A DNA stretch of 64,000 nt from Anaerolineae bacterium (GTDB taxonomy: Bacteria; Chloroflexota; Anaerolineae; UBA1429), in NCBI GenBank assembly GCA_963675785.1, contig OY776562.1:2304001-2368000 (forward strand). The letters are read 5' to 3'. The position numbers and the translations under genes were made by a program. The notes beneath the pieces were generated by a model. The model was given only the letters and a program-made list of their open reading frames with translations, did no database searches and was not told the DNA's origin. Below are positions 19,444 through 59,027 of the stretch, piece after piece. Numbering within the stretch: position 1 is the stretch's first letter; each line of letters opens with the position of its first letter.

Positions 19444-19459
19444 AAAAGGAAAGAATGTC

Positions 19460-21412: not shown

Positions 21413-21427
21413 TGATAGGAGACGCAC

Positions 21428-23401: not shown

Positions 23402-23413
23402 GAGTGTAACCCC

Positions 23414-35546: not shown

Positions 35547-37208
35547 TTACTCTCTGGCGAGTTCCACTTTGATGGCCTGGCCGCGAATCTTCCAGCCTTT
35601 CATGCGCCGGATGACATGGTCTACTTGGTCCTGGGCAACATCAACCGAAGTATCCAAATCGTGGATCTTGATGGCGCCAATGGCCTTACCCTCGATACCC
35701 GCCGTGCCTGTAATCGCACCCACAATCTCACCCGGGCGTATGCCGCTTTCGCGGCCAACGTTTAGTGAAAGGCGAACCATACCCGGCTCATTGCGTGTTC
35801 TGGTCTGTGTTGGGCGTCGGCGCGGAGCGGAACGCTGCGGACTACGCCGCTCAGAGCGATCTCGTCGATCTCGCTCAAGCGTATTCGTACGCATTCGTGC
35901 AATATCCTCGACAGGTCTCTTGATTTCGCCAGCACGTGCCAACTGAATGGCCGCAGCCGCCAAATCGAGGGGATCATAACCCCCTGCTACGAGGTTCTCA
36001 GCCAGAGTACGCTCATCAGCAAAATCGTCCAGAGCCAACTGCTCGGCAAGTTTATCGATAAAACGCTCATCCCGGCGCTTTTGCACATCCGCAATGGACG
36101 GCAGTGAAACTTCGGGGATGGTCTGGTGCATATACTTTTCGATGCGCCCGAGACGCCAGCCCTCTTTGGGCGTCACCAGTGTCAAGGCCACGCCTTGTTT
36201 GCCCGCACGTCCTGTGCGGCCAATACGGTGCACATAGTATTCAATATCCACAGGGATATCGAAATTGATAACGTGAGACATATCGTCGATATCCAAACCA
36301 CGTGCAGCCACGTCCGTCGAAATCAGTAGTTGTGTTTGCCCCTGGCGGAAATGTCGCAGCACAGACTCACGAGCCTGCTGCCCAAGTTCGCCATGTAGCG
36401 CTTCAGCCGTAAATCCGCGGGCTGTCAGTGCATCAGCCAACTGATCGGCGCCAACACGCGTCTTGGTAAAAACCAGGGCACTGGTGACATCCTCAGCTTC
36501 CAAAAGGCGAGTGATGGCCGCCAGCTTGTCACGCTCGGGCACCACGTAATAGCGCTGCTCAATGTTCTCTACCGTCACCTGGCCCGGATCAACGGTGATT
36601 GTCTCGGGTTCGTGCATATAGTTATCGGCCAGAGCGCGAATCTCTTTGGGCATAGTGGCCGAAAAAAGCGCCGTCTGCCGTGTATCAGGGGTCTCGCTCA
36701 AAATAGCCTCAATATCTTCGATGAACCCCATGCTGAGCATCTCGTCAGCCTCGTCCAGCACGAGAAAACGCACGCCAGCAAAGCTGAGCACGCCCTTTTT
36801 CAAGAGATCCAAAATACGGCCGGGTGTACCGACGACAATTTCGACGCCTTCTCGCAGACGCCTGATTTGATGCGAGTAGGACTTGCCGCCGTAAATCGGC
36901 AGCACGCGTGCACCTGTATAGCGCCCCAGGTCATGAATCGCCGCAGCAATCTGCATGGCCAATTCTCGGGTCGGGGTCATCACCAAACCCTGTACCTGAC
37001 CCTCTTCGGGATCCAGATTTTGCAGCATGGGCAGCGCAAAAGCGGCAGTCTTACCGGTGCCCGTTTGGGCCTGTCCCACCATGTCATGCCCCGCCAACAA
37101 AACGGGGATGCTCTTTTCCTGAATGGCGGTGGGGCTTTCAAAACCGAGCTCATCCACAGCCTTTGCCAACTCGGGGCCCAGCCCCAAAACCTCGAACGTA
37201 ACTGTCAC
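35547..37208 (-). CDS. deaD: DEAD-box RNA helicase (DeaD/CshA type) with C-terminal DbpA RNA-binding domain
   Basis: AQTGTGKT, PTRELA, TPGR, DEAD, SAT, ARGLD, HRIGRTGRAG; GTG start after AGGGAG. Confidence 0.9.
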   Translation of the reverse strand: MTVTFEVLGLGPELAKAVDELGFESPTAIQEKSIPVLLAGHDMVGQAQTGTGKTAAFALPMLQNLDPEEGQVQGLVMTPTRELAMQIAAAIHDLGRYTGARVLPIYGGKSYSHQIRRLREGVEIVVGTPGRILDLLKKGVLSFAGVRFLVLDEADEMLSMGFIEDIEAILSETPDTRQTALFSATMPKEIRALADNYMHEPETITVDPGQVTVENIEQRYYVVPERDKLAAITRLLEAEDVTSALVFTKTRVGADQLADALTARGFTAEALHGELGQQARESVLRHFRQGQTQLLISTDVAARGLDIDDMSHVINFDIPVDIEYYVHRIGRTGRAGKQGVALTLVTPKEGWRLGRIEKYMHQTIPEVSLPSIADVQKRRDERFIDKLAEQLALDDFADERTLAENLVAGGYDPLDLAAAAIQLARAGEIKRPVEDIARMRTNTLERDRRDRSERRSPQRSAPRRRPTQTRTRNEPGMVRLSLNVGRESGIRPGEIVGAITGTAGIEGKAIGAIKIHDLDTSVDVAQDQVDHVIRRMKGWKIRGQAIKVELARE

Positions 37209-37526
37209 TTGGTACTCCCTTGCAGAGAAAAAGGACCCGCCATACAGGCAAGGTCCTTTGCATTTCCTATAGCCTCTAAGTTTCATAACACCAACGAGTA
37301 TCATATCACGGATTGCCGCCGATGCCAATATCCTGTATGAAGGTGCACACACATTCATGCGTGCGCCTCGACACTATCCTGGCACAAAATTCTCTCCATG
37401 ACCTCACAAATACTTGACCAACTCAACTAATACAGATCATTACACTCCTTGGGCAGTTGAGCCATCCCTGCTAGAATATCAAAAGATCAATGGCGATCAC
37501 GAACTCATTGAAACGCGAGGCGCCAT

Positions 37527-39356
37527 ATGGTGAAACACCCTTTTTTATCAAGATTATCAAGAGGTCCCCTACTGGCGGATGGAGCCCTGGGCACCGAACT
37601 CTACCGGCGAGGCGTCATACCCGACCAGGTATGCATCGCCAATATCGATCAGAGCGAGCTGGTGCAAGAGCTGCACATGGCCTACCTGCAGGCCGGGGCT
37701 GAACTCATCGAGACCAACAGTTTTGGGGCCAACCGCATTCAGCTGGCTCGCTGTGGACGCGACAACCAGGTGGCGCGAATCAACCGTCAGGCGGCCAAGC
37801 TAGCCCGGTATGCCCGCGATACTGCCGGCAGTCAGGCATTTATCGCCGGCTCCATTAGTCCTCTAACTATTAGCAGCCGCACCACCACCCGTTACGCTGT
37901 TGAACAAGGACGAGCTTTATTCAGCGAGCAAATCGAGGCCTTGATTGAGGGCGGCGTCGATCTGCTATTGTTCGAGACCTTTCCCGACGTCGAGGAATTG
38001 GCCTTTGCCGTGAAAACCGCTCGCGAACTCTGCCAGTTGCCCATCATCGCCTCTGCAACCTTTGGGCAGGATGGCCGAACTCCCTGGGGTCAAACCCCGC
38101 AAGAGGTAGTCAAAGCATTGCAAGCTGCTCAAGCTGATGTCATTGGCTTGAACTGCAGCGTAGGGCCCAGCGATGCCCTAGATATCGCCAAACAAATGCT
38201 CTCGGCGGGCGTTGAGTACCTCAGTATGATCCCCAATGCGGGCATGCCCCAAAGAACCAGCGACGGACGCCTGCTATATGCAGCCACACCGGCATACTTT
38301 GCCGAGATCGCCGTCAAGGCCGCTGCTGCTGGCGTCTCGGTGATTGGCGGCTGTTGTGGCACCACACCAGAACACATTGCCGCCATGCGCCAGGCACTGG
38401 ATGCAGCTCACCCCGAGAAAAAGCCTGCGGCGGTCACGGTGGTACTGCCGCCCCGGCAAAAGGCCGGACAGGATACAGAACCCACAGCCTGGGCCAAAAA
38501 GCTCGCTGCGGGGCAATTTGTCACTTCTATCGAGCTCTCGCCGCCGCGAGGCCTGCACACTGGCGCCTTTATGCGCCAGGCCCGCCAAATCGCCGAGGCC
38601 GGCTGTGTGGACGCCATCAATGTCACCGATAGCCCCATGGCTCGGGTGCGCATGGACGTGGCCGCCGCCTGCTATATGCTGCAAACGCAGGTGCAAATCG
38701 AAACTATCGCCCATGTGACCACCCGCGACCACAGCCTCATTGGCCTGGAATCCATGCTCATTGGCGCCCACGCCATGGGCGTGCGCAACATCCTGGCACT
38801 CACTGGCGATCCTCCTTCGCTGGGAACCTGGGATCACAGCAGCGCCGTCTATGACATCGATTCGATCGGTTTGGTAGAGGCCATACAGGCCATGAAGCGC
38901 GGACAGGACATTGTAGGCACCGACCTGGGTTATGGAGCCGGCTTTTGCGTGGGTGCCGCCGCGGATCCCACACGCGATGATTTGCGCACCGAGGCCGAGC
39001 GCCTGCACCGCAAGATCGAGGCGGGGGCTGAATACGTCATGACCCAACCCCTGTTCGATCTGGCGCTGTGGGATCGTTTTTGCACGTATTACGGTGGTGA
39101 GGTGGAGGTGCCGGTGATTCTGGGGGTGCTGCCCCTGCTGAGCCAGCAGCATGCCGAGTACCTGCACAATGAAGTACCCGGCATTACCCTGAGCAAAGCT
39201 GTACTCGAAGAGATGCGCCACGCTGGCGCCAATGGACAGCAAGTGGGCATTCGCCTGGCGAAAGAGATGGTGGCCGCCGCCCACGAGCGCTTTGCTGGCG
39301 TGTACCTCATGCCCTCATACAACCGCTGCGAGACCGTATTGCAGGTGCTGGAATAG
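37527..39356 (+). CDS. yitJ: Bifunctional homocysteine S-methyltransferase / methylenetetrahydrofolate reductase
   Basis: DGALGTEL, ETNSFGAN, GLNC, GGCCGTTPEHI, then MTHFR-like D.P.A.VRM, TGDPP, KIEAGA, TQP, LHNEVPGI. Confidence 0.9.
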   Translation: MVKHPFLSRLSRGPLLADGALGTELYRRGVIPDQVCIANIDQSELVQELHMAYLQAGAELIETNSFGANRIQLARCGRDNQVARINRQAAKLARYARDTAGSQAFIAGSISPLTISSRTTTRYAVEQGRALFSEQIEALIEGGVDLLLFETFPDVEELAFAVKTARELCQLPIIASATFGQDGRTPWGQTPQEVVKALQAAQADVIGLNCSVGPSDALDIAKQMLSAGVEYLSMIPNAGMPQRTSDGRLLYAATPAYFAEIAVKAAAAGVSVIGGCCGTTPEHIAAMRQALDAAHPEKKPAAVTVVLPPRQKAGQDTEPTAWAKKLAAGQFVTSIELSPPRGLHTGAFMRQARQIAEAGCVDAINVTDSPMARVRMDVAAACYMLQTQVQIETIAHVTTRDHSLIGLESMLIGAHAMGVRNILALTGDPPSLGTWDHSSAVYDIDSIGLVEAIQAMKRGQDIVGTDLGYGAGFCVGAAADPTRDDLRTEAERLHRKIEAGAEYVMTQPLFDLALWDRFCTYYGGEVEVPVILGVLPLLSQQHAEYLHNEVPGITLSKAVLEEMRHAGANGQQVGIRLAKEMVAAAHERFAGVYLMPSYNRCETVLQVLE

Positions 39357-39379
39357 CCAGCCCCAAGCCGGAGGTTCTT

Positions 39380-40228
39380 ATGCTGACGAAACTCTCATCC
39401 AAGAACAAGACCGTCAAGATTGCGCCAGAACGGCCGGTGGTGCTCATTGGCGAAGGCATCAACCCCACAGGCCGGCCCCGGCTGGCCCGTGCCCTGGCCA
39501 AAGGCGACATGGCCTATGTGCAAAAGCTGGCTCTGGAGCAGGCTGAGGCGGGCGCCGACGTGCTGGACGTGAATGTGGGCAGTGGAGGTGTAGACGAAGT
39601 GGTCGCGCTGCCCGCCGCCGTGCGGGCCATTGGTGAGGTGTGCGACCTGCCGCTGTGCCTGGATTCGCGGAACCCGGCTGCGCTGGCCGCCGCCCTAGCC
39701 ATCTACGAGGGTACGGCCCTGCTCAACTCCATAAACGGCGAGGCGGCAGTGATGGAGCGCCTGCTGCCAATAGCCGCTGAATACGGATGCGTCATTATTG
39801 CGCTTTGCACCGACGATGAGGGTATACCCAGTACGGCCAGTGGACGCCTGCTCGTGGCCGAAAAAATCATTAACCAGGCAGAATCGGCAGGAATTGCCCG
39901 GGAGAACATCTTGGTGGACTGCCTGGCGGAGAGCGCAGGTGCCACACCGGCGGCGGGCGCGATCTGTCTGGAGGCGGTGCGGCTGGTGCGTAGCGAGTTG
40001 GGCTGTAATATGACCTTGGGCGCCAGCAATATCTCGTTTGGGATGCCCAACAGAGAGACGATTAATGCGCGGTTCCTGGCGATGGCAATTGCCGCAGGGG
40101 TTAACGCCCCCATCGTGAACGCGGCACAGGCTAAAGAGACGGCGATGATCGCGGATCTGCTGATGGGCAATGATGAGTTGGGTATCAAGTACATCCGAGC
40201 TGAACGTAAGAAACGGAGAATGTCCTAA
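39380..40228 (+). CDS. Pterin-binding methyltransferase (stand-alone MetH folate domain / AcsE-like, DHPS fold)
   Basis: IGE.INPTGR, Q..AGAD.LDVN, PL.LDS, LNSING, GASNISFGMPNR. Confidence 0.87.
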   Translation: MLTKLSSKNKTVKIAPERPVVLIGEGINPTGRPRLARALAKGDMAYVQKLALEQAEAGADVLDVNVGSGGVDEVVALPAAVRAIGEVCDLPLCLDSRNPAALAAALAIYEGTALLNSINGEAAVMERLLPIAAEYGCVIIALCTDDEGIPSTASGRLLVAEKIINQAESAGIARENILVDCLAESAGATPAAGAICLEAVRLVRSELGCNMTLGASNISFGMPNRETINARFLAMAIAAGVNAPIVNAAQAKETAMIADLLMGNDELGIKYIRAERKKRRMS

Positions 40229-41302
40229 AAAGCAAGGCCATCCTCTCGGAGAAGACGAATTCAAAGATTTTCGTCTTCTCCCCCTTTTGCCTAGGCCGCC
40301 ATTGGGCTGCCCAACCGTGAGAGGATCAATGCTCGGTTCCTGGCAATGGCGATTGCCGCGGGGGTCAATGCGCCGATTGTGAATGCGGCGCAGGCTAAAG
40401 AGACGGCGATGATCGCGGATTTACTGATGGGCAATGATGAGTTGGGTATCAAATACAGCAGATAAAAAGCATCTGACGAGCTGAACGTAAGAAACGGAGA
40501 ATGTCCTAAAAAGCAAGGCCATCCTCTCGGAGAAGACGAATTCAAAGATTTTCGTCTTCTCCCCCTTTTGCCTAGGCCGCCATTGGGCTGCCCAACAGAG
40601 AGACGATTAATGCGCGGTTCCTGGCGATGGCAATTGCCGCAGGGGTTAACGCCCCCATCGTGAACGCGGCGCAGGCTAAAGAGACGGCGATGATCGCGGA
40701 TTTACTGATGGGCAATGACGAACTGGGTATCAAATACAGCAGATAAAAAGCATCTGACGTGCTGAACGTAAGAAACGGAGAATGTCCTAAAAAGCAAGGC
40801 CATCCTCCCGGAGAAGACGAATTCAAAGATTTTCGTCTTCTCCCCCTTTTGCCTAGGCCGCCATTGGGATGCCCAACCGCGAGAGGATCAATGCTCGGTT
40901 CCTGGCGATGGCGATTGCGGCAGGAGTCAATGCCCCCATCGTGAACGCGGCACAGGCTAAAGAGACGGCTATGATTGCGGATTTACTGATGGGCAATGAC
41001 GAACTGGGTATCAAATACAGCAGATAAAAAGCATCTGACGTGCTGAACGTAAGAAACGGAGAATGTCCTAAAAAGCAAGGCCATCCTCTCGGAGAAGACG
41101 AATTCAAAGATTTTCGTCTTCTCCCCCTTTTGTTAAACACCGACCAAGATAGAGCAACAGACGGCTTTTGGCGATGGCAATTGCCGCAGGTGTGATAGAG
41201 AATGTCCACAAAACGGGGATATCCTCTTGAAGAGGACGAATTCAAAGATTTCGTCACCTCCACCTTTGCTTAGCCGCTATTGGGCTGCCCAACGAGAGAC
41301 GA
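40038..41302 (+). repeat. Tandem array of ~281-bp units duplicating the methyltransferase 3' end plus its downstream hairpin
   Basis: Units start at 40038 (inside the gene, 264 bp), 40302, 40583 and 40864. A degenerate, internally deleted copy spans about 41168-41279 and a stub spans 41280-41302. Confidence 0.95.
40302..41027 (+). pseudogene. Three 5'-truncated fragments of the methyltransferase (G[L/M]PNRE[R/T]INARFLAM...GIKYSR*)
   Basis: Each fragment is preceded by an in-frame TAG, has no evident RBS and ends at a TAA inside a 17-nt insertion. Confidence 0.75.
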
Positions 41303-41372
41303 CCATGAAGAATAAACAGGCTGATGGTGCATTCGCCTGTTTCTTTGTTTGAAGGTTTCTTGTTTTCTGGTC

Positions 41373-41381
41373 TGCTATAAT
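41373..41381 (+). promoter_or_regulatory. Extended -10 promoter element
   Basis: TGcTATAAT about 45 bp upstream of the ATG at 41425. Confidence 0.55.
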
Positions 41382-41424
41382 TAGTGGAAAACAGGAATAA
41401 ACAAGAGTTTGTGAGGTGAACGCT

Positions 41425-41892
41425 ATGCCGCAGATCGCTAAAGGCGGGAAATTCATCTTTGGAAAATCTCTGATTCGGGACGGCTTGAAGATTCAATTTC
41501 CGCCTCAGGCTATTGCAGAATACAACATCACCGCGGAGGGGAAAATCTATTTATTCACAGGCAGCAAGAGTACGGGCGGATTTTGTGTAACACGAAAAGG
41601 ACTGTTGTATCCATCCAAGATCGGCAATATTCTGCAAGATACGCCCGTGTTACTGAATTACGAATTGCAGGAAGGCGAGTTCGTCCCTTACAAAGGACGT
41701 TTTTACTGCTGGGTGAAGATTTTGCCCGAGGGGATGATCACACTGCCCAGACCGACGGCAGCTTTGTTGCAGGTTGAAACTGGCATGGCGCTTTTATCCA
41801 TCAGAAGCAGCGATATTGCTTTTACAATGGGGGCAAAAGGACCATTGCTAGAAAAGGCCCAGAACTATGACGGCGTAATCGACGTTTTCTAG
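41425..41892 (+). CDS. Conserved hypothetical protein, possibly with two AbrB/SpoVT-like swapped-hairpin segments
   Basis: G.KIQFPPQAI.EY and G.ITLPR segments; GAGGTG ribosome-binding site; AT-richer codons. Confidence 0.65.
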   Translation: MPQIAKGGKFIFGKSLIRDGLKIQFPPQAIAEYNITAEGKIYLFTGSKSTGGFCVTRKGLLYPSKIGNILQDTPVLLNYELQEGEFVPYKGRFYCWVKILPEGMITLPRPTAALLQVETGMALLSIRSSDIAFTMGAKGPLLEKAQNYDGVIDVF

Positions 41893-41964
41893 TTCGCTAG
41901 ATTCCAACAACTGCGCGGGTGGGGCGAGTCAGGAACTTGTCAGTAAAGGGTAAGGGTATTGGCC

Positions 41965-42432
41965 ATGTTTCGCTATGTGCATACGAATATTGTTGCTAAA
42001 GACGCAGGAAAACTGATCGATTTTTACAAGCGTGTGCTGCACTGTAGCAGCATTGACGAAAAGCGCGATCTGCGCGGGGAATGGTTGGATGAGCTCACGA
42101 GGGTAGATGACGCTCATATCAGGGGTGAGCATCTTTTGCTGCCGGGGTATGGCGAGGATCACCCGACACTGGAGATCTTTGGCTACGACACGACGAAAGA
42201 TGCCATCCCCCAAGAGATCAATCGCCCCGGTATCGCTCACTTGGCGTTTGAAGTGGATGACGTGGAAGCCACCCTGCAAGAGATCATCCAGGCGGGAGGA
42301 AGCAGCATCGGAGAGGTGGTGACGGCAGCCTACCCGAACGGCGTGGAAGGGGTCTTTGTTTACGCACGAGACCCTGAAGGCAATATTGTCGAGCTGCAAA
42401 GCTGGAAACGGATCCAAGCCGACTCGAAATAG
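41965..42432 (+). CDS. VOC/glyoxalase family protein
   Basis: YVHTNIV, LEIF.Y, GIAHLAFEVDD, YARDPEGNIVEL. Confidence 0.9.
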   Translation: MFRYVHTNIVAKDAGKLIDFYKRVLHCSSIDEKRDLRGEWLDELTRVDDAHIRGEHLLLPGYGEDHPTLEIFGYDTTKDAIPQEINRPGIAHLAFEVDDVEATLQEIIQAGGSSIGEVVTAAYPNGVEGVFVYARDPEGNIVELQSWKRIQADSK

Positions 42433-42563
42433 TGGATGCAGAGAGCCAGTACCAGGAGCCCACAGCGTAAGATGGGGTTTCTATGTTGATAGACCACAAG
42501 CGGACTCGCCGGTGAGGGCGGGGTGGCGAATACGGCAGACCCCGAGCTGAAGGGGCGCCGAGG

Positions 42564-43775
42564 TCAGTTTAGCAGGGCAGACAGCTCCGAGTAACCCTGG
42601 GCATCTGGGGCAATCTCGATACCCTGAAGACCCTGATAGATCCGAAAATGATCCAAAGCCTGAGAAAACGCACGGTTCATCTCGGACGAAGGGGCCACAT
42701 TGGGCTGCCACCACCAATTCTTGATGAGCAGGGTGTTGTTCTGGCGGTTACGGACCGGCTCGAAACGGGCCACAAAGCGATCGCCATAGAGCACGGGGAG
42801 CACGTAATAGCCGTACTCGCGCTGGGCGACGGGCTTGTAGACCTCCCAGCGATAGTCGAAATCAAAGAGAAAGCTGAGCATGTCGCGATCCCAGATGAGA
42901 TTATCGAGGGGGGCGATGAAAGAGACACGCGGGGCCTGGGTAGGCGGCTGCTGAGCCAGGGGCAGCAGGGCCTCCTCGGAGCGGCGCAGGTAATAGGGCC
43001 ACCTGGCGTCCTCGACCTCGACCTCTAACAGCTCGCCGCGCTCGGCCAGACGCTGAACCGCGGCCGTGCGCTGAGCGGCCTTGATTCCGGACATGCCCAT
43101 CCAGGGGACTCCGCCGCCGGTGCGCAGCAGGCCCACACTGCCCAGACGACGGAGGACATAGGCCTCCTGATAGGCCTCGGCGGTGGGATTGGGCTCCTCG
43201 GCAGAGACGATCTCGGTGGGAAGGTGGCGCTCGATGAGATCATAGACCTTGCGAGTGCCCACGCGGTGATGAATGACCAACTGGCCCATGGTGTGCATGC
43301 CCTCAAGGGCGGCACGAGAAACGCGGGCGGGGCCCCAAGGCCAATCCACACGCTCGTTATGGTCGAGATCGATGGAAGAGAGAGGGCCGCGCTCGGCCAG
43401 GGCCCGGCGCACCTGGGGGATGACCTCGAAAATGGCGCCGGAGCGCCTTTGCATGTGATGACGCTCACTCTCTCGCCAGCGCCCGAAAAAGGGCCAGTCC
43501 TCGACGGGGTAGAGGCAGGCCATCTTGTCCCAGCCATCCAGCAGGGCGAAATCGGTGTAGAGCAGCTCCTCCAGCAGGGCGGGCGTATAGCCAGAGACGC
43601 GCGACTGGAGGACCAGATCGGGATTGCGGCCCACCACATTGAGGGGGTCGAACTGGACGGCGCGCACGTGATGGACAAAGGCCAGAGCGCCCTCTTTGCC
43701 GCTGAGCTGCCTGGGGGGCAGCAGGTATTGGTGTAATAAGAGCAAACGACCGGCCTGTTGGCGGGTGAGCTTCAC
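42564..43775 (-). CDS. ycaQ: YcaQ/AlkZ-family winged-helix DNA crosslink glycosylase
   Basis: QFDPLNVVGRN.DLVL.SRV (QxD catalytic motif), APLDNLIWDR, YRWEVYKP...R.YGYYVLP; GTG start after GGAGG. Confidence 0.85.
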   Translation of the reverse strand: MKLTRQQAGRLLLLHQYLLPPRQLSGKEGALAFVHHVRAVQFDPLNVVGRNPDLVLQSRVSGYTPALLEELLYTDFALLDGWDKMACLYPVEDWPFFGRWRESERHHMQRRSGAIFEVIPQVRRALAERGPLSSIDLDHNERVDWPWGPARVSRAALEGMHTMGQLVIHHRVGTRKVYDLIERHLPTEIVSAEEPNPTAEAYQEAYVLRRLGSVGLLRTGGGVPWMGMSGIKAAQRTAAVQRLAERGELLEVEVEDARWPYYLRRSEEALLPLAQQPPTQAPRVSFIAPLDNLIWDRDMLSFLFDFDYRWEVYKPVAQREYGYYVLPVLYGDRFVARFEPVRNRQNNTLLIKNWWWQPNVAPSSEMNRAFSQALDHFRIYQGLQGIEIAPDAQGYSELSALLN

Positions 43776-43789
43776 GAAAACCTCCACGA

Positions 43790-43817
43790 TTGACGGACAA
43801 CGGATACATGTTATCAT
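43790..43817 (+). promoter_or_regulatory. Putative sigma70 promoter for ogt
   Basis: TTGACG-N16-TATCAT with TG extension. Confidence 0.5.
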
Positions 43818-43831
43818 AGAACAGATGTTCT
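43818..43831. promoter_or_regulatory. LexA (SOS) box, Gram-positive/Chloroflexota type
   Basis: AGAAC-agat-GTTCT between two divergent DNA-repair genes. Confidence 0.78.
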
Positions 43832-43902
43832 TGTCTAGTGGGGACTGGAAAGATGGACAAAACCTGCTAGAGTAAGTTTATTGAAAAAAGAAAGAGGGAG
43901 CC

Positions 43903-44427
43903 ATGAGCCCAGAAGATAAGCTCGTTCGCATTCGCCGTACCATGGTGCCCAGCTCAATTGGGCTGCTGCTGGTGGCGGCCACGACCAAGGGGCTATGCTA
44001 TGTGGCCCTGGGGGATACGGAGGACGAGGTGGAAGAGGCGCTGCGCGCTGCCTACCCGCAAGCAGAGTTCACGGCGGGGGACGCCGAGCTGGCGGGCTGG
44101 ACGCAACAGGTGCTAAGTATCATCGAGGAGCCGGGGCAGCCGGTGGACGTGCCCCTAGACGTGGAAGGGACAGCCTTTCAGCAAAAGGTGTGGCGGGCAC
44201 TGCAAGAGATCCCGCTGGGGACGACGGTGAGTTACGGCGAGTTGGCGCAAAAGATCGGGGCGCCCAAGGCGGCGCGCGCCGTGGGCCACGCCTGCGCGAC
44301 GAACAAGGTAGCGCTGGTGATTCCCTGCCACCGGGTGGTGCACCAAGACGGTACGCTGGGCAGCTACTATTGGGGGCTGGCGCGCAAGAAAGAGCTGCTG
44401 CGGCGAGAGAAGGACTCCCGAGGGTGA
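43903..44427 (+). CDS. ogt: Methylated-DNA--protein-cysteine methyltransferase (Ogt/AdaB type)
   Basis: GTAFQQKVW..L..IP.G...SY, ARAVG.AC, IPCHRV. Confidence 0.92.
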   Translation: MSPEDKLVRIRRTMVPSSIGLLLVAATTKGLCYVALGDTEDEVEEALRAAYPQAEFTAGDAELAGWTQQVLSIIEEPGQPVDVPLDVEGTAFQQKVWRALQEIPLGTTVSYGELAQKIGAPKAARAVGHACATNKVALVIPCHRVVHQDGTLGSYYWGLARKKELLRREKDSRG

Positions 44428-44445
44428 TGCCCTCGGGAGTTTTTT
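44414..44445 (+). terminator. Intrinsic terminator overlapping the ogt stop codon
   Basis: actcccgaggg-tgatg-ccctcgggagt-ttttt. Confidence 0.85.
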
Positions 44446-48274: not shown

Positions 48275-50020
48275 ATGCCAAACTTTCGATTGAAGCTGGC
48301 CGCACTGGTTGCGTCAGCCGTCATGGTGGTTGGCTGCAGCACGAGTGGCTCGGCCAGCCCTGAGCAGTTTTATTCCACCGGGCAAGTAACGCGCGGCGAT
48401 ATGGCCGAAGTGATTCAGACCTACGGCCAGATTACGGCGCAAGAAGAAGAGACCCTCACCTTTGGTACTGTCAGCGGCACCATCTCTGAGGTACTGGTGA
48501 GCGTCGGCCAAACCGTACAGGCGGGTGATCCGCTGGTGCGGCTGAACACGGCTGCGTTGGAAAAGGCGCTGGTAGAAGCCAAGGCCGATCTGGTGGTGGC
48601 CGAAGCCAAGCTGCGCGAAGCCGAGGTAACTGCCTCGGAATCCGCCGTGCTGGAGGCCGAAGCGAACCTCATCTCGGCTGAGAACGCGGTCTCTAAAGCC
48701 TATCTCGACTGGCAGATCGCCATCGCGACGGGCCTCGAATCGCTGCAGAACGCGGTGACCAAGGCCCAGGCCGACGTGGCGCTGGCCCAACAGCAATTGG
48801 AGATGACTCAACTTACCGCGCAGAGCGGGCAGATTCGCCTGTTGGAATACGACGAGGCGTTTTTGCAGCGCAGCCTGCGCGACATTACCCCCGAGCAAGA
48901 CCCCGCGCCGATTCAGGAGCAGTTGGAGCAGACTCAGCAGAGCCTGGCCACTGCGCGTGCCTCGCGCGAGAGCAGCATTCAATCGGCGCAGGACGTGGTG
49001 GATCAGGCCGAGCAGGATTTAGCCCGCGCCCAGGCCAAGCTACAGCGCGCCACAAATGGCACCGACGATCCCACGGTTAGCGCCGAACTCGCCTATACAC
49101 AGGCTGTGAGCCAGCGCGATGCTGCCCAAAAGGCGTTGGACGACCTCAATCAGGGCGGTGACCCTGCCTCTGTGGAGGCCGCCAAAACGACTTATGATGC
49201 GGCCTTGGCCAAGGTAGAAGAGATCGAGTCCAAGATTGAAGATACAACCCTCACCGCTCCCTTTGCCGGCGTCATCTTTTCGCTCAATGCCCAAGAGGGC
49301 CAGGTGGTTACTTCCTCCGATCAGATCATTTACCTGGCCAACCCCTCTGAGTTGAGCGCTACCGCCAACGTTTCCGAGGTCGATGTGGTGAAGCTCAGTC
49401 TCGGTCAAGAGGTGCGCGCCACTTTTGACGCCTTCCCCGACGAGCTGGTTATCGGCGAATTGGAGAGCATCGATCAACAGGCTGATACGCAGAGCGGCAT
49501 TCCTGCGTTCGCCATCAAGGTCGCTTTTGACGAGACGCCTGACGGCGTCAGCCCCGGCCTGAGCGCCAATCTGCGCATCATCATTGGCGAACGGCAAGAT
49601 GTCATTATGGTGCCCGCCGCCGCCCTGCAGCAGGATTGGGAAAACGTGTATGTGCAGGTGCAAAAGGCCAGCGGTTCCTGGGAAACGCGCACTATCACCA
49701 TCGGCATCAATGATGGCATCATGGTGGAGGTTCTCAGCGGACTGGAAGAGGGCGAGACAGTGATGCTGCCTCTCACCGATACCAGCACTGACACCGGTAC
49801 GGGCGTCGTCGAACCTCTCATGGAAGATTCCAATCAAGAAGGCGTCATCGATGAGACTGGAGACGGCGTCATTCTTGACGATTCAGGCGAAGGTGTGATC
49901 ATCGAAGAAGCAGGGTCTTCTGAGGCAGGGATTGGCGGAGCTGATAGCCCTGAGATCATTGAAACGACGCCGCTGACCGATACGGTGTCCGTTGATAAAG
50001 AAAGCACAGAGGCCAGGTAA
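48275..50020 (+). CDS. Efflux adaptor (HlyD/MacA-like) lipoprotein, operon A gene 1
   Basis: Lipobox VVG/C; lipoyl halves (V.VGQ.V.AGD, TAPFAG); long coiled coil; acidic tail. Confidence 0.88.
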   Translation: MPNFRLKLAALVASAVMVVGCSTSGSASPEQFYSTGQVTRGDMAEVIQTYGQITAQEEETLTFGTVSGTISEVLVSVGQTVQAGDPLVRLNTAALEKALVEAKADLVVAEAKLREAEVTASESAVLEAEANLISAENAVSKAYLDWQIAIATGLESLQNAVTKAQADVALAQQQLEMTQLTAQSGQIRLLEYDEAFLQRSLRDITPEQDPAPIQEQLEQTQQSLATARASRESSIQSAQDVVDQAEQDLARAQAKLQRATNGTDDPTVSAELAYTQAVSQRDAAQKALDDLNQGGDPASVEAAKTTYDAALAKVEEIESKIEDTTLTAPFAGVIFSLNAQEGQVVTSSDQIIYLANPSELSATANVSEVDVVKLSLGQEVRATFDAFPDELVIGELESIDQQADTQSGIPAFAIKVAFDETPDGVSPGLSANLRIIIGERQDVIMVPAAALQQDWENVYVQVQKASGSWETRTITIGINDGIMVEVLSGLEEGETVMLPLTDTSTDTGTGVVEPLMEDSNQEGVIDETGDGVILDDSGEGVIIEEAGSSEAGIGGADSPEIIETTPLTDTVSVDKESTEAR

Positions 50021-50021
50021 G

Positions 50022-51647
50022 ATGAGCAAGAAACGTAAATGGACCAAGCCGCTGGCCGGCATCGGCTGCCTTTCTGTCATCGCCATCGTTGTGGTATTGG
50101 TGATTACGGTCGCAATTCCCCAGATCAAATCGCTGGTGAACGGCGACACGGATCAATCCCAATGGGACCTCATGGGCCCTACTATCGACCAAACAGTAAC
50201 TGTTGGCTCGGTTTCCAACGGCATTCAGGTGTACGGCACGGTCAAGCCTATCCGCGAGGCCTCGCTGTCCTTTGGGTACGGCAACGCCACGGTATCGCTG
50301 ATCAACGTCTACGCGGGCATGCCCGTCATGGCGGGGGATACTCTCATTCAGGTGGATACCGAAGAGCGCGAGCGCGACCTGGCGCAGGCCAAATCGGATT
50401 TACAGGACGCCCAGGATGAACTGGACGCCCTTTTGAGCGGAGTCGATCTGGCATCAAAACAGCTCGAACTAAGAGTAGAGCTGGCCCAGTGGCAGGAGAA
50501 ACTCACTGACGCACAGACTGCACTGGCCGATTTCGATGCGGGCAAGGGGACTCCTGCCGAAGAGAGAGAACGCGCTGCGCAAGAACTGACCCAGGCTCGG
50601 GCCAATTTGGACGAGCTAGTAAACGGCCAAGATCGGCAAGAGATGATCGATCAGTTGCAGTGGATCTATAACCAGGCCGAAGTCAAGCATGGCGAGATGA
50701 CGGTCATTGCCAACCCCAGCGAGCAAGACATGGATATCGAGTGGCTGCTGCGCATCGATATGCTGGCCAAGTACGAATCGTTGGAGCAGGCCAAACTGCA
50801 ATACGATATAGACGTTGCCAACGCCGAGCTGCGTGTGCAGACTGCTGAGCAAGAACTCGCCCGGCTGGATGCAGAGCTGGCGCTAGGGAGCCAGGCCATT
50901 GCCCGGCAAGAGATTGTCGCCGAGATTGCCGCAGCGCAAACGCGTATTGCCCAAATCAACGCGTCGCTTACTAACCTTTCGCAGAATGTGGATACGGCCG
51001 AAGTAGCCGAAGCGCGTGCTGAGGTCATCAAAAAAGAGGGTGCTCTGGAAGAAGCCGAGAACGCCATGGCGGATTCGGTGCTCGTAGCCCCCTTTGACGG
51101 TCTCGTGGCTCAGGTCAATGCTGAGCAAGGCAGTCCCGTATCCGCTGGGGCAGCTGTTGTCATCATCCAGGATACCAGTTCGTTGCGCATCACTGCCCAG
51201 ATGAGCGAGGTCGACCTCAAACGCATTACCACTGGCGATCCCGTAGTGGTCACTTTTGACGCCTATCCTGGTCAGCAAGTCTATGGCACAGTTGGCGAAT
51301 TGCCGCTCACGGGCACTTATCAGAACGGCATCACCACCTACGAGGTGCCTGTTCTCCTCGAGGATGTGGGTATCGACCTGATGACCGGCATGTCGGCCAA
51401 TGTGCTGGTGCCACTGGAAACCATCGATAACGTGCTGGTGGTTCCCGCAGCAGCCGTGTTTAGTGAATACACTGGTGACGACTATGTTTGGCTCGTCAAT
51501 GGCAACGATGTCGAAAAACAATACATTGAAGTGGGCATTAGCGATGGCCTAAACACCGAGATCAAGGCGGGGTTGGAAGAGGGTCAGATTGTGCGAATGG
51601 TCACCCAGAGCTATTCCCAAAGCTCTGGAGGAGTGATATTCTACTAA
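50022..51647 (+). CDS. Efflux adaptor (HlyD/MacA-like) with N-terminal TM anchor, operon A gene 2
   Basis: TM helix, APFDG, E.D, GMSA.V, VP..AV, G.SDG..TEI..GL.EG. Confidence 0.88.
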   Translation: MSKKRKWTKPLAGIGCLSVIAIVVVLVITVAIPQIKSLVNGDTDQSQWDLMGPTIDQTVTVGSVSNGIQVYGTVKPIREASLSFGYGNATVSLINVYAGMPVMAGDTLIQVDTEERERDLAQAKSDLQDAQDELDALLSGVDLASKQLELRVELAQWQEKLTDAQTALADFDAGKGTPAEERERAAQELTQARANLDELVNGQDRQEMIDQLQWIYNQAEVKHGEMTVIANPSEQDMDIEWLLRIDMLAKYESLEQAKLQYDIDVANAELRVQTAEQELARLDAELALGSQAIARQEIVAEIAAAQTRIAQINASLTNLSQNVDTAEVAEARAEVIKKEGALEEAENAMADSVLVAPFDGLVAQVNAEQGSPVSAGAAVVIIQDTSSLRITAQMSEVDLKRITTGDPVVVTFDAYPGQQVYGTVGELPLTGTYQNGITTYEVPVLLEDVGIDLMTGMSANVLVPLETIDNVLVVPAAAVFSEYTGDDYVWLVNGNDVEKQYIEVGISDGLNTEIKAGLEEGQIVRMVTQSYSQSSGGVIFY

Positions 51648-52939
51648 TGAAAAGGCCAATCAATCTACAATTTGCGCTGCATGGGCTGGGTTCCAGCAAG
51701 CTGCGTTCGGCACTCACTACACTTGGCATCGTCATCGGTGTCGCCGCTGTCATTACGATCGTCTCTTTGGGGCAAGGCCTAAGCCGGGCCACAAAGGAAC
51801 AGATGGAATCTTATGGCAGTGGTACCATTGAGGTGCGTCCATCGATGAGCGGCGGCTATTACTATTCTGATTATGCAATGAGCTCGGTTGCTGTAATGGG
51901 TGGGAGTGATTACTATTCTTCGCCGGCGCAGGCCCAGCTTACGTCTCAGGATGTAACAGCCATCGAAATGCTTTCCACACGCGTGGACGGCGTATCTCCA
52001 CAAATCGAGATCTATGGCAGCAGCTCGTGGAATGGCGAAAGCACCTACGCGGGTTCGATCCTTGGTATCACGCCGGAATGGCTCAACGTCTACAAGCGAG
52101 AACTGTCTCTGGGACGCTTTATCTCGGATGAAGACAACCAAAATCAGTTGCCCGTTGTGGTCATTGACGAGCAATTGGCAGAAGAGGTGATGGGAAGTAT
52201 CAATCCGATCGGACAAATCCTCCATATCACTGTCAACGAAGTTACGCAAAACTATACGGTGATTGGAGTGCTCGCTGCCAACTCTCAGTACAGTTCTACG
52301 CGCTATAACCTGCTCATCCCTATGGAAACCGCGAACGTACGCCTGCCTGGCGCACGTGATGCAGGTATCAGTATGATTGCCTTGCGTATGGATGATCGCG
52401 ACATGCAAGAACGCGAATATGCTTTGGCTGAGGTCAACACGATCCTGCGCGCCAGCCACAAGCTTAGCCGATCGGATACGGCAGACTTTTACCTGCAAGA
52501 CACGCTGCAATATAGTGAAAGCTCCACCCAATTCCTCCAAGTCGTTACTATTGTTCTCGCCCTGATAGCCGGCATCTCTTTGATTGTAGGCAGCATCGGC
52601 CTCATGAACATCATGCTGGTCACTGTAAGTGAACGCACCTGGGAGATCGGTATGCGCAGGGCCATCGGCGCCCAGCGCAGCGACATCATGGTGCAGTTCC
52701 TGACAGAAGCCATCCTTCTTTCGCTGGCTGGAGGTTTGGTTGGCATGGGATTGGGAATCGCTGGCTCCTATGGTGTGGCGATGCTGTTCGAGGAACTTCA
52801 AGGGCATATCGTGGTCACAGCGGGCATCGTCGGCATTGCCGTAGGTGTATCAACAATCGTTGGCGTCGTTTCAGGCCTGTACCCTGCATGGCGCGCAGCC
52901 CGGTTGCAACCGACAGAAGCGCTTAGACACATGGCCTAG
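51647..52939 (+). CDS. MacB/FtsX-type ABC permease, operon A
   Basis: RS.LT.LGIVIGVAAV, GLMNIMLV.V.ERT.EIG.R.A.GA, G.YPAWRAARL.P.EALR. Confidence 0.93.
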   Translation: MKRPINLQFALHGLGSSKLRSALTTLGIVIGVAAVITIVSLGQGLSRATKEQMESYGSGTIEVRPSMSGGYYYSDYAMSSVAVMGGSDYYSSPAQAQLTSQDVTAIEMLSTRVDGVSPQIEIYGSSSWNGESTYAGSILGITPEWLNVYKRELSLGRFISDEDNQNQLPVVVIDEQLAEEVMGSINPIGQILHITVNEVTQNYTVIGVLAANSQYSSTRYNLLIPMETANVRLPGARDAGISMIALRMDDRDMQEREYALAEVNTILRASHKLSRSDTADFYLQDTLQYSESSTQFLQVVTIVLALIAGISLIVGSIGLMNIMLVTVSERTWEIGMRRAIGAQRSDIMVQFLTEAILLSLAGGLVGMGLGIAGSYGVAMLFEELQGHIVVTAGIVGIAVGVSTIVGVVSGLYPAWRAARLQPTEALRHMA

Positions 52940-52965
52940 TTGTAGCAAGTACGCAGGAGGATTTC

Positions 52966-53664
52966 ATGACAAGTGAAAACGGCGCTCTGCTGCACCTGGA
53001 GAACGTCCGCAAAATCTACCAGATGGGCGAAGTAGAAGTCGAAGCCATCAAGAACGCCAGCCTGGATATTCAGGCTGGAGAATTCGTTGCCATTGTTGGG
53101 CCTTCAGGTTCTGGAAAAACAACCATGCTCAACATCGTTGGCTGTCTCGATCTGCCTACAGAGGGCACGTATTATCTTCAGGGGCAGGATGTGATGGCCA
53201 TGAACGATAGGCGAATCTCGCAGCTTCGTGGCGAGGGGCTGGGGTTTGTTTTTCAGAATTATAGCCTTTTGAACCGCGCCACGGCCCTGGCCAACGTTGA
53301 AATGCCCTACCTTTACAAGTACCGCAATGGAAATAAGAACCGTGCCAAAGAATTATTGGAAAAGGTTGGGCTCGGAGATCGTATCAACCACCGCCCCACC
53401 GAATTATCTGGTGGGCAGCAGCAACGTGTAGCTGTGGCGCGCGCGCTGATGAACGACCCTTTCTTGCTGTTAGCGGATGAACCTACCGGCAACCTGGATA
53501 GTCACTCGGGCCAAGAGCTCATGGATTTGTTCGATCAACTCAACCATGAGCAAGGGCTTACTATCATCATGGTTACCCATGACGCCGACATAAGTGCACG
53601 GGCCAAGCGCACTGTACACATGCTGGATGGTGAAGTTGAGCACGACGAACACAACGGCAGATAG
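52966..53664 (+). CDS. ABC ATP-binding protein (LolD/MacB type), operon A
   Basis: [34 protein letters not shown]. Confidence 0.95.
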
Positions 53665-53923: not shown

Positions 53924-53934
53924 AGCATTTCTAG

Positions 53935-54007
53935 CGCGCCCAGCAGGGGTCGAACCTGCAACCGACGGATTCGAAGTCCGGCACTCTATCCATTGAGCTA
54001 TGGGCGC
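53935..54007 (-). tRNA. tRNA-Arg (anticodon UCG), CCA not encoded
   Basis: Reverse complement GCGCCCA-TAGCTCAATGGATAGAGT-G-CCGGA-CT-TCG-AA-TCCGT-CGGTT-GCAGG-TTCGACC-CCTGC-TGGGCGC-G; full cloverleaf with a T-loop. Confidence 0.95.
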
Positions 54008-56054: not shown

Positions 56055-56072
56055 GGATAGAGGCAAAATAGC

Positions 56073-57683: not shown

Positions 57684-57696
57684 GAGGGGTGCACTC

Positions 57697-59004: not shown

Positions 59005-59027
59005 TTGTAGCGAACAGGAGATATTTT

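Follow-up and report, generated by a model that had tools for sequence, protein, structure and literature searches.

In the pilS/pilE and vls systems, silent cassettes feed an expression site by gene conversion and thereby diversify a protein. In the CDI and Rhs systems, orphan C-terminal modules lie downstream of polymorphic toxin genes, their ends encoding different toxins together with immunity genes. The locus described here lies in a 64,000-nucleotide stretch of an Anaerolineae genome (the window), where the last 50 codons of a methyltransferase gene recur in three silent head-to-tail copies downstream. As with pilS/pilE and vls, the copies are promoterless, 5'-truncated and partial, stand beside the expressed gene and appear to have exchanged mosaic patches; however, they encode nearly the same peptide (1–2 residue differences, dN/dS ≤0.07) and would therefore yield no protein variation. 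The likeness to CDI and Rhs loci is found in their stacks of displaced gene 3' ends, which stay homologous to the main gene over part of their length, but here the gene encodes a housekeeping enzyme, the protein does not change and there is no partner gene.

Within the Chloroflexi group, the Dehalococcoides ssrA islands show direct repeats of a gene 3' end stacked downstream of the gene (PMC3146451). Those islands resemble the present locus in having an intact gene whose 3' end is repeated behind it in direct orientation, a strain-variable neighbourhood and older copies lying farther away; there, however, the repeats are 20 bp long, are split by kb-scale islands and often come with a serine integrase module (PMC3146451). 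Here, units of 264–281 bp abut one another with no cargo and no nearby integrase, and the copies have in common a frame-breaking insertion that is absent from the live gene. Transformation-triggered merodiploidy is alike in its head-to-tail repeats formed by alternative pairing, in the possibility of outside donor DNA and in copies that are free of selection (PMC3784515). Those duplications span 100–900 kb and are bordered by IS copies (PMC3784515), whereas the array has a 281-bp period and foreign-looking silent-site variation. A full-text literature search turned up no account of synonymously diverged gene ends stacked without cargo.

Organization of the array and its assembly support

The gene at 39380..40228 (+ strand) is a methionine-pathway methyltransferase gene of a Chloroflexi-type bacterium. 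This expressed copy encodes 282 aa ending in ..GIKYIRAERKKRRMS* and is classed as a pterin-binding methyltransferase by Pfam (Pterin_bind, 8.1e-26) and NCBIfam (NF005719, 264.5 bits, cut-off 259). Its upstream neighbour (37527..39356, + strand), with which it forms an operon-like pair, is a bifunctional homocysteine S-methyltransferase / methylenetetrahydrofolate reductase gene whose product matches Pfam S-methyl_trans (1.6e-68) and MTHFR (3.5e-33) as well as NCBIfam NF006396 (659.7 bits, cut-off 453). A protein from another assembly, P0001, is 99% identical to the methyltransferase. The C-terminus of the enzyme fits the family pattern of 8–18 aa after a conserved Tyr, found in 121 of 121 proteins (119 relatives, the methyltransferase itself and P0001). 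A 2-aa tail after this Tyr, as in the silent units, occurs in none of the 121.

Tandem Repeats Finder places the array at 40196–41132 with a period of 281, 3.3 copies, 94% matches and 0% indels, and by alignment its homology to the gene begins at 40038. The gene's own repeat copy, unit 0 (40038..40301, + strand), consists of the last 64 codons and a 73-nt non-coding tail. Three silent units follow on the same strand: u1 (40302..40582, 281 bp), which carries haplotype B and, by codon counts, the most diverged variable block, and which is 87% identical to unit 0 over the entire unit; u2 (40583..40863, 281 bp), a mosaic; and u3 (40864..41132, 269 bp), which stops at its terminator, the last two being characterized from the alignment and a table of variable sites. 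An earlier note on this DNA had placed units of 281 bp at 40302, 40583 and 40864 plus a decayed copy, and both methods agree. The length of 281 bp holds for the repeat of the silent units but not for the gene's own copy, which is 264 bp long and lacks a 17-nt insertion. This frame-breaking insertion (+ strand; 40460–40476 in u1, 40741–40757 in u2 and 41022–41038 in u3; alignment columns 177–193) leads to a premature stop (..KYSR*) in all three silent units and is absent from the expressed gene. There is no ATG in u1 or u2; u3 carries a 52-aa ORF with an ATG (40869–41027), and a ribosome-binding site is not evident. The repeats behind the intact gene, namely three complete units and relics, all have direct orientation, and the units abut with 0 bp of cargo in between at a period of exactly 281 bp.

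The earlier note had also described a near-invariant non-coding tail. Its near-invariance stands, with 2 of 94 sites variable, but the first 33 nt of this constant stretch are coding in the expressed gene (..IRAERKKRRMS*) and the non-coding tail is 73 nt. A hairpin resembling a terminator (perfect stem of 12 bp, loop of 10 nt), followed by CCCTTTTG, lies at 40529..40562 (+ strand) and is repeated at 40248–40281, 40810–40843 and 41091–41124. Its fold has an MFE of -44.3 kcal/mol (z-score -3.04), and a search of 37000–42500 against Rfam for a known RNA family in the tail gave 0 matches at E up to 1. The unit boundary carries the motif TTGGGCTGCCCAAC (40302..40315, + strand), which encodes G-L-P-N and contains a 13-nt perfect palindrome, TTGGGC-T-GCCCAA, adjoining an 8-nt palindrome, GCCTAGGC. 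The motif is also found at 40583 and 41280 and, as the A variant, at 40038 and 40864; the window holds five plus-strand matches, and eight when both strands are counted, where chance would give 0.56. By eye, it resembles the integron core/inverse-core consensus, but with both halves adjacent.

The array is real, with each unit at 1x per genome, and is not a misassembly of strain variants. In run X1, which may be the source sample of the assembly and whose contigs do not span units, the k-mer depths of the pieces listed were 237.5, 232.4 and 226.9 for those specific to the gene copy, u1 and u3, against 224.2 and 228.6 in the flanks. A piece shared by the gene and u2 was at 456.5 (~2x) and a shared tail piece at 786.9 (~3.4x). 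In these pieces, coverage does not fall across the array, a fall being what the earlier note had named as a sign of misassembly. The genome was assembled as one 3.22-Mb contig, and a second sample, X3, shows no differences from the locus.

Several runs hold related strains, and run X4 is a strain mixture. In X4, 3.5–8.7% of letters differ at 42160–44265 against 0.6% upstream, and a SIR2-HerA pair downstream is skipped in most of the DNA. Contigs of X4 break at 40073 and 41103, as in X1, which suggests that the array is shared by a strain differing at 0.6% of sites upstream. The downstream DNA is low in G+C and strain-variable. From another assembly, P0122 has a u3-type block with the same 52-aa translation and a changed tail. 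In its constant block, the stop is replaced by Tyr and the ORF runs on, two further residues are found in no copy here and two match other copies here; its hairpin loop is flipped relative to the array hairpins. From these differences, the constant block is not conserved across strains. Gene callers predict the u3 ORF in two assemblies.

Synonymous divergence and mosaic structure

Over 51 codons, the gene and u1 differ by 15 synonymous and 2 non-synonymous codon changes, the exact numbers of the earlier hand count, with 3, 1 and 15 changes at the three codon positions. These 19 of 153 nt correspond to a dS of 0.664 and a dN/dS of 0.039, and the gene and u2 differ at 8 of 153 nt (dS 0.220). Divergence of the coding part is 9–12% in most pairs and 5% between the gene and u2, with 1–2 non-synonymous codon differences per pair over the 51 codons. 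When the four copies are taken together, 26 sites vary, of which 21 are third, 4 first and 1 second positions (binomial p = 9.3e-7). Three of the four first-position changes are synonymous within six-fold Arg or Leu codons, so that 24 of the 26 variable sites are silent. The codon-position bias on which the earlier proposal depended is thus present, and pairwise values for the variable blocks are 0.22–0.67 for dS and 0.014–0.068 for dN/dS. In the constant block, copies differ from one another at 0–2 of 94 sites; the comparison of 21 variable third positions out of 51 with 2 variable sites out of 94 gives a Fisher p of 1.6e-9. Diversity drops from 5' to 3', with 18 variable sites at positions 1–89, 8 at 90–155 and 2 in the 94-nt constant block.

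Under neutral theory, copies decaying in place should show a dN/dS of close to 0.5, with the tail diverging roughly as much as the silent sites. The variable blocks, judged by their codon positions, bear the mark of long purifying selection. With the low dN/dS and the near-identical adjoining block, the variation must, on this comparison of copies, have arrived recently from functional alleles of diverged lineages. The mark of purifying selection supports the earlier suggestion that the fragments stem from different functional alleles.

Simple tandem duplication with decay in place, against which the earlier note had argued, would fit the constant period. It is ruled out by the 21 third positions among 26 variable sites, by a dN/dS of 0.014–0.068 at a dS of up to 0.67, and by the adjoining constant block with its 0–2 differences in 94 nt.

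The silent units, as read from their variable sites, are related to one another and mosaic. Substitutions at unit positions 120, 122, 152 and 157 are shared by u1, u2 and u3 and are not found in the expressed copy. From unit position 15 to 83, u2 equals the expressed copy at every variable site, and u1 and u2 have the same state at sites 6 and 89, which flank this gene-type sequence in u2. All three two-by-two groupings of the four copies are present (sites 6 and 89; 15–68; 137–178), which requires at least three recombination breakpoints, and neighbouring units differ across the entire variable block. Since the 17-nt insertion is common to the silent units, these are not simply successive displaced functional ends. 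The earlier picture of functional ends laid down one after another is not supported, given the insertion and the four substitutions that only the silent units share, and neither is that of a simple layered record, given the mosaicism with its three groupings and the gene-type stretch of u2.

Beyond u3, the relic (41133..41302, + strand; alignment and self-comparison) is decayed and rearranged. It is composed, in order, of a 36-nt unrelated spacer, a 22-nt fragment of the variable block (41169–41190) that is identical to the gene/u2 type at 22 of 22 positions, a constant block (41198–41279) that is 80% identical with 67 of 84 aligned columns matching, and a 23-nt unit start (41280–41302) equal to that of u2 with a 1-nt deletion. 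The decoupling of the two parts is reversed in the relic: the variable pieces match at 45 of 46 positions and the constant block at 80% (P = 7e-4 under uniform decay).

Recombinases, donor alleles and further loci

The earlier note had stated that no recombinase gene is in the window, and no integrase or transposase domain was found there among the 53 ORFs scanned (90 aa or longer, an antisense ORF within the array excepted). The genome has two tyrosine recombinases, XerD and one Xer-like, at 1.19 and 3.05 Mb. There are 0 matches in the genome to the Resolvase or Recombinase families of serine recombinases, and the best score for an integron integrase, 134.8 bits against a cut-off of 265, falls on the XerD gene. 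In this respect, the locus differs from an integron cassette array; in a comparison with attC by eye, the hairpin has a perfect 12-bp stem and the "cassettes" are all the same gene fragment.

Donor alleles were searched for in several collections. In the protein database, only P0001 (99%) was more than 59% identical, the next best being at 59%. A protein-guided scan of the metagenome kept 80 loci with a best identity of 51%, and 40 relatives, among which there is no same-genus genome, gave best DNA identities of 65–74%. In 41 family genomes, the best unit match was 75% over 83 nt; the matches of units to intact alleles of relatives that the earlier note had proposed to look for were thus not found among these 41 above 75%. 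A degenerate 18-residue peptide pattern had 0 matches in the genome and viral collections, and plasmids, phages and viral contigs gave no match to the array sequence. For the hairpin tail, a 26-nt pattern had 0 matches in the metagenome, genome and viral contigs; given the perfectly palindromic stem, this pattern matches the loop in either orientation.

A direct repeat of the gene's own 3' end was found at 0 of the 80 homologous loci, where 11 extra matches were all inverted hairpins. There is no second such locus in the 41 family genomes or in this genome, in which self-BLAST finds no other copy of any array part, and no other gene of this genome is followed by stacked 3' ends of the kind that the earlier note had proposed to seek. 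Its suggestion of an undescribed system is not upheld, given no recombinase in the window, no cargo and no second locus in the genome, the 80 homologous loci or the 41 family genomes. There is a small chance that a site-specific process lies behind the array.

Possible origins of the array

Our tentative preference, at slightly less than an even chance, is for an array that arose as pseudo-copies were duplicated, crossed over unequally and, in patches, exchanged homologous DNA with functional alleles that had diverged in unsampled relatives, by a mechanism that is unproven. With the same near-even confidence, ordinary homologous recombination would have made and reshaped the locus, a real and heritable tandem array that borders a strain-variable region and whose pseudo-copies, promoterless and 5'-truncated, represent the closing portion of a methyltransferase gene from an essential pathway. 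The segment from the G-L/M-P-N codons to 12 nt beyond the terminator would have been duplicated head to tail, and, from the shared derived characters, one silent copy would have gained the 17-nt insertion. The insertion-bearing copy may then have multiplied via unequal crossing-over inside the identical constant block, which is made up of the insertion, the last 11 codons, the terminator, a 12-nt filler and the start of the motif. The 155-nt variable blocks are seen to be mosaic, and one patch of u2 was copied from the expressed gene. The diverged haplotypes of u1, u3 and part of u2 would have been copied by homologous recombination from functional alleles of close unsampled relatives, with DNA uptake as an example of a possible route. 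Exchange would be limited to unbroken homology, on the left by the point where filler replaces the gene body and on the right by the 17-nt heterology and the fast-evolving tail, so that the constant block would stay local. Its uniformity in this genome and its difference in another assembly are consistent with concerted evolution or recent expansion. The silent copies are probably without function and at most extra terminators.

Duplication with patchy exchange is favored by the confinement of the insertion to the silent units, the form without it being the family norm (121 of 121 proteins), by the low dN/dS of the variable blocks beside near-identical constant blocks, by the three groupings of the copies, by the reversed decoupling in the relic, by the differing constant block of P0122, by the lack of an integrase in the window and by the strain-variable downstream region. 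ComEC and DprA are encoded in the genome, as they are in most control genomes, and their presence lends weak support to exchange. On the other side, the donor lineage was not found in the searched collections, and the imports would have to come from three or more diverged source haplotypes. A 155-nt target at ~12% divergence leaves very short flanking identity (at most 14 nt left of site 15), which makes a poor substrate for RecA-type exchange. The persistence of a neutral tandem array, apparently shared between strains, is unaccounted for, and the boundary palindromes of 13 and 8 nt are what a site-specific process would use.

It is unlikely that the stack is instead an archive of successive expressed ends built by ordinary recombination, in which DNA imported from diverged relatives replaced the 3' end again and again. 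Tracts would enter from the gene body and end in the last 50 codons, and unequal exchange would then copy the current end to a silent slot, so that the stack would list expressed alleles in order of time; such an archive is the earlier note's idea without a new machine. A drop in diversity from 5' to 3' is expected if import tracts stop before the fast-evolving tail, adjacent units differ over the whole block as after wholesale replacement, and the gene adjoins a strain-variable region. Such an archive is difficult to reconcile with an insertion found in all three silent units and absent from both the expressed copy and P0001, the only other sampled allele, or with a 2-aa tail that 0 of 121 family proteins have. 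Copying an expressed unit to a silent slot would need a crossover within only 14 nt of shared motif, and cleanly separated layers would not give the mosaic patches (u1 = u2 at sites 6 and 89). Serial site-specific integration at the palindromic motif is distinctly improbable. Here the units would be scars of integrase-bearing elements or of small circles mobilised in trans, each bringing a replacement 3' end from its previous host and later losing its body. Tandem integrative elements are known to leave stacked direct repeats of a target gene's 3' end, a perfect palindrome of 13 nt forms the unit boundary, the 23-nt terminal stub resembles a short att remnant and the downstream DNA is low in G+C and strain-variable; an 8-bp palindrome at a gene's 3' end is reportedly the att site of PAISt. 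Yet the units are separated by 0 bp of cargo at a period of exactly 281 bp, no integrase is in the window, and the genome offers just XerD and one Xer-like gene, with no recombinase of the serine type. The gene-proximal copy should be the incoming one, but it has the only family-typical end. Furthermore, the constant block, including 33 nt of the gene's coding end, is identical in all units although the part that would have travelled with it is 9–12% diverged in most pairs (5% between the gene and u2), and no phage, plasmid or viral contig carries the array sequence.

An "allele archive", in which a recombinase (unknown or visiting) acts at TTGGGC-T-GCCCAA and serially captures ~155-nt foreign 3'-end segments of the same gene, is very unlikely. 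There is equally little to recommend the placement of such segments between copies of a constant module of insertion, terminator hairpin and filler, and only a slim chance that new units would be added near the gene as old ones decay distally, in formal analogy to an integron or CRISPR array but with alleles of a housekeeping gene as what is recorded. Maintenance of the units by selection through expression, either of the sense mini-ORF (u3, 52 aa) or of antisense ORFs (84, 84 and 136 aa), is highly implausible. In every unit the antisense frame does stay open, its third positions coincide with those of the sense frame, and the u3 ORF is called in two assemblies; nevertheless, the sense frame fits best over the six pairs (77 synonymous and 11 non-synonymous, the best antisense frame having 66 and 25), and three first-position changes are silent in the sense frame only. 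None of 1138 candidates is related to the antisense ORFs, u1 and u2 have no ATG and the stop is lost in P0122, so that ORF length is not conserved. There is next to no likelihood that strain variants of one gene end were concatenated during assembly. Related strains occur in several runs and X4 is a mixture, but the unit-specific pieces are at ~1x flank depth with shared pieces at ~2x and 3.4x, the genome is a single 3.22-Mb contig, X3 is without differences and a u3-type unit is found in another assembly.

If duplication with patchy exchange holds, silent tandem pseudo-copies near a variable region can store silent-site variation of never-sequenced relatives, and concerted evolution would be restricted to one of the two halves of a 281-bp repeat; the locus would be useful for recombination estimates in poorly sampled Chloroflexi. 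If a site-specific process is true, the array would represent gene-end stacking in a minimal form that lacks cargo. Either way, it is one locus in one lineage with no evident function and opens no long-standing question.

Two further candidates were rejected. A replication origin, terminus or dif site as the cause does not agree with a skew minimum at 2.84 Mb and a maximum at 1.2 Mb, the window being at 2.30–2.37 Mb. Second-order selection on silent donor copies was set aside by reasoning, since a silent divergence of ~0.4 points to conversion events too infrequent to remove deleterious changes. As judged by coordinates only, every other tandem repeat in the genome with a period of at least 60 sits within a long ORF or is a whole-gene duplication.

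Layout and integrity of the array

The pterin-binding methyltransferase gene (39380-40228; 282 aa; Pfam Pterin_bind and NCBIfam NF005719, above cut-off) and the array that follows it lie on a single 3.22-Mb contig, within 2,304,001-2,368,000. From profile searches, the gene is immediately preceded by one for a bifunctional homocysteine S-methyltransferase/MTHFR, and its homologues at 54–59% identity are proteins named Chloroflexi or Anaerolineae, so the organism probably belongs there. Head-to-tail recurrence of the gene end begins at 40038, where Tandem Repeats Finder reported a period of 281, 3.3 copies, 94% matches and no indels. By alignment, the array comprises the gene's own copy (unit 0, 264 bp, 40038-40301), the silent copies u1 (40302-40582), u2 (40583-40863) and u3 (40864-41132), and a relic after u3 that extends up to 41302. 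Every unit starts with TTGGG(C/A)TGCCCAAC, which encodes G-L/M-P-N and contains a 13-nt palindrome; a window scan found five plus-strand matches to this motif and eight on both strands against 0.56 expected. Units end 12 nt past a hairpin, whose 12-bp stem is perfect and which precedes CCCTTTTG.

That the array exists was confirmed by the tandem-repeat call, the alignment and read depths in the public sequencing run X1. Stitched strain variants would leave each unit with a fraction of the flank depth. Since the copy-specific pieces of the gene copy, u1 and u3 reach 237.5, 232.4 and 226.9 against flank k-mer depths of 224 and 229, this explanation was rejected, with the caveat that X1 is possibly the genome's own source sample and its contigs cannot span units. 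The piece common to the gene and u2 has a depth of 456.5, and the tail piece common to the copies 786.9. Other data agree: run X3, a second sample, has no differences; the strain in run X4, which shows 13 differences over 2,074 nt of upstream sequence, has contig breaks at 40073 and 41103, the same two places as X1, which fits the same repeat structure; and a u3-type unit is present in another assembly.

None of 80 homologous loci had a direct repeat of its own 3' end, and 3 of 41 family genomes matched any unit (best 75% over 83 nt). No parts of the array were found elsewhere in this genome, where the other long-period repeats are intragenic or whole-gene duplications.

Substitution pattern and the 17-nt insertion

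Within the variable block (~155 nt), codon changes were counted pairwise over 51 codons, with dS and dN/dS by the Nei-Gojobori method. The gene and u1 differ by 15 synonymous and 2 non-synonymous changes (dS 0.664, dN/dS 0.039), the same counts as in the earlier note. The gene differs from u2 by 6 and 1 (0.220, 0.039) and from u3 by 15 and 1 (0.673, 0.026). Among silent copies, the values are 15 and 1 for u1 and u2 (0.583, 0.030), 15 and 1 for u1 and u3 (0.600, 0.014), and 11 and 2 for u2 and u3 (0.383, 0.068). The synonymous bias proposed earlier is thus strong, with dN/dS of 0.014–0.068 and third positions making up 21 of the 26 variable sites among the four copies (p = 9.3e-7); three of four first-position changes are six-fold silent changes in Arg or Leu codons. 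Summed over pairs, the sense frame gives 77 silent versus 11 replacing changes and the best antisense frame 66 versus 25, and the sense frame accounts for the pattern best.

The alignment also places a 17-nt insertion in u1, u2 and u3 but not in the expressed copy. It brings the frame to an end at ..KYSR*; in its absence the expressed gene continues to ..KYIRAERKKRRMS*. The near-invariant tail had been described as non-coding. Its near-invariance held, with 0–2 differences between copies over the 94-nt block past the insertion (Fisher p = 1.6e-9), but its first 33 nt are coding in the live gene, and position 178, their sole variable site, varies only synonymously in the ancestral frame. Variable sequence therefore gives way to invariant sequence at the insertion, not at the stop codon. 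Among 121 family proteins (this methyltransferase, the 99%-identical P0001 from another assembly and 119 more distant relatives), the residues after a conserved Tyr number 8–18, never 2, and P0001, the only other sampled allele, has the long C-terminal end. From this pattern, the ancestral state is that of the live copy, and the silent copies have two kinds of derived mark in common: the insertion and the substitutions at unit positions 120, 122, 152 and 157.

In another assembly, an 80-aa ORF (P0122) on a 1.25-Mb contig opens with 52 residues identical to the translated u3, among them the M plus R combination specific to u3, and reads on where the u3 stop is changed to Tyr. Relative to u3, two further residues are absent from every copy in this genome and two occur in other copies here, E (gene, u1) and P (u2). 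The end of P0122, ..GEDENL*, is exactly what the reverse-complemented hairpin (41091-41124) encodes, so the hairpin loop is flipped in that assembly, a change suggestive of loop inversion mediated by inverted repeats. Given these changes, the constant block is not conserved between strains, and its uniformity in this genome is a local effect of concerted evolution or recent expansion.

Mosaic structure and origin of the stack

The variable-site table contains all three two-by-two groupings of the four copies: sites 6 and 89 pair the gene with u3, sites 15-68 with u2 and sites 137-178 with u1, which requires at least three breakpoints. Because u1 and u3 carry six and four private changes, all silent and third-position, at least three diverged source haplotypes under purifying selection are needed. 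From 15 to 83, u2 has the state of the expressed copy at all variable sites, and this stretch resembles a patch that the live gene donated by conversion. At site 6, the L of u1, u2 and the stub at the array end is the family norm (119 of 121 proteins), and M, as in the live gene, is confined to this species. In the relic, the two pieces of variable block agree with the gene/u2 type at 45 of 46 positions, but identity in the constant block falls to 80% (67 of 84 aligned columns), a contrast with a probability of 7e-4 under uniform decay. This decoupling runs opposite to that of the full units.

Under duplication with decay in place, dN/dS would be near 0.5 and the tail would have diverged as much as the silent sites. 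Neither holds here, which also rules out a time series made up of the lineage's own alleles. Second-order selection acting on the silent donor copies was rejected by reasoning: at the divergence seen, conversion would be too infrequent to remove harmful changes. The failure of these readings indicates that the variable blocks derive from functional alleles of lineages at dS ~0.2–0.7, as the earlier note had proposed; they must have arrived recently relative to the mutation rate. Two further proposals, a layered record of 3'-end replacement and an undescribed system, found no support.

The best reading, held tentatively, is recombinational. The founder would have been a pseudo-copy already bearing the 17-nt insertion, unit number would have grown by unequal crossover within the identical block, the live gene would have donated conversion patches, and patchy homologous exchange would have occurred with foreign functional alleles. 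If such exchange were limited to the unbroken homology from the unit start to the 17-nt heterology, the constant block would remain local. Transformation is a known trigger of tandem duplication via alternative pairing of repeats (PMC3784515), and the genome encodes ComEC and DprA, whose presence mildly favors the recombinational reading. Its weak points are the very short flanking identity for imports, the requirement for at least three of them and the unexplained persistence of the array; no donor lineage was found among those sampled. Archiving of successive expressed ends, a less likely variant, accounts for the fall in diversity from 5' to 3' but is hard to square with an insertion common to the silent units.

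A site-specific origin of the stack can still be entertained. The palindromic boundary motif, a 23-nt att-like stub that terminates the array and the strain-variable neighboring DNA would suit a classical integrative-element stack, for which a study of Dehalococcoides provides a precedent in tandem islands with a serine integrase, marked by stacks of 20-bp ssrA ends (PMC3146451). However, the array has an exact period and no cargo, its only intact end is gene-proximal, and its constant block includes this gene's own last 11 codons. The sequence is absent from the phage, plasmid and viral contigs searched. As noted earlier, the window lacks a recombinase gene (no integrase in 53 scanned ORFs), and genome-wide there are just XerD and one Xer-like recombinase, with no serine recombinase. 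An integrative element is thus quite improbable. The locus is a curiosity, probably without function, that known processes generated in a lineage of which few members have been sampled.

Neighboring DNA and other repeats

A SIR2-HerA anti-phage pair (44541-48052; PADLOC SIR2 2e-158, HerA 5e-255) has a G+C content of ~45% versus ~55% around it, with indel boundaries near 44445 and 48075. Most X4 DNA lacks the pair, as three joints run from 44445/44448 to 48075/48076 with a summed depth of ~64 versus 8.5 for the contig that includes the pair, and cover in run X8 is little or none. Thus, the pair is a strain-variable insertion between terminator-like hairpins. The X4 strain differs by 3.5–8.7% in 42160-44265, 0.6% in the upstream methyltransferase operon and 0.2–0.4% in 41103-42071, so divergence between strains is mosaic. 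The 42160-44265 region holds glyoxalase-family, AlkZ-like glycosylase and O6-methylguanine methyltransferase genes. Directly 3' of the array, a 158-aa ORF (41416-41892) in a stretch of 46% G+C had no Pfam, NCBIfam or PADLOC match.

Elsewhere in the window, 19331-25357 holds three tandem paralogous ORFs (693, 657 and 647 aa; no Pfam family) with 73–78% DNA identity at a spacing of ~1,977 nt by self-BLAST. Adjacent paralogous sets of HlyD-type membrane-fusion genes with an ABC ATPase occupy 48275-53664 and 54159-59720, the first set alone matching a MacB/FtsX-type permease, with a tRNA-Arg gene (53934-54007) between them. Outside the window, two 95%-identical tRNA-like copies with similar flanks (C1:1974277-1974384 and 2003092-2003198) lie in direct orientation 28.8 kb apart and may be borders of an integrated element; a family search found no tyrosine recombinase there. 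The region C1:1.40-1.56 Mb contains many dispersed short repeats (45–240 nt) with paired G+C-rich hairpins, which resemble REP-type elements and are concentrated in ~150 kb.
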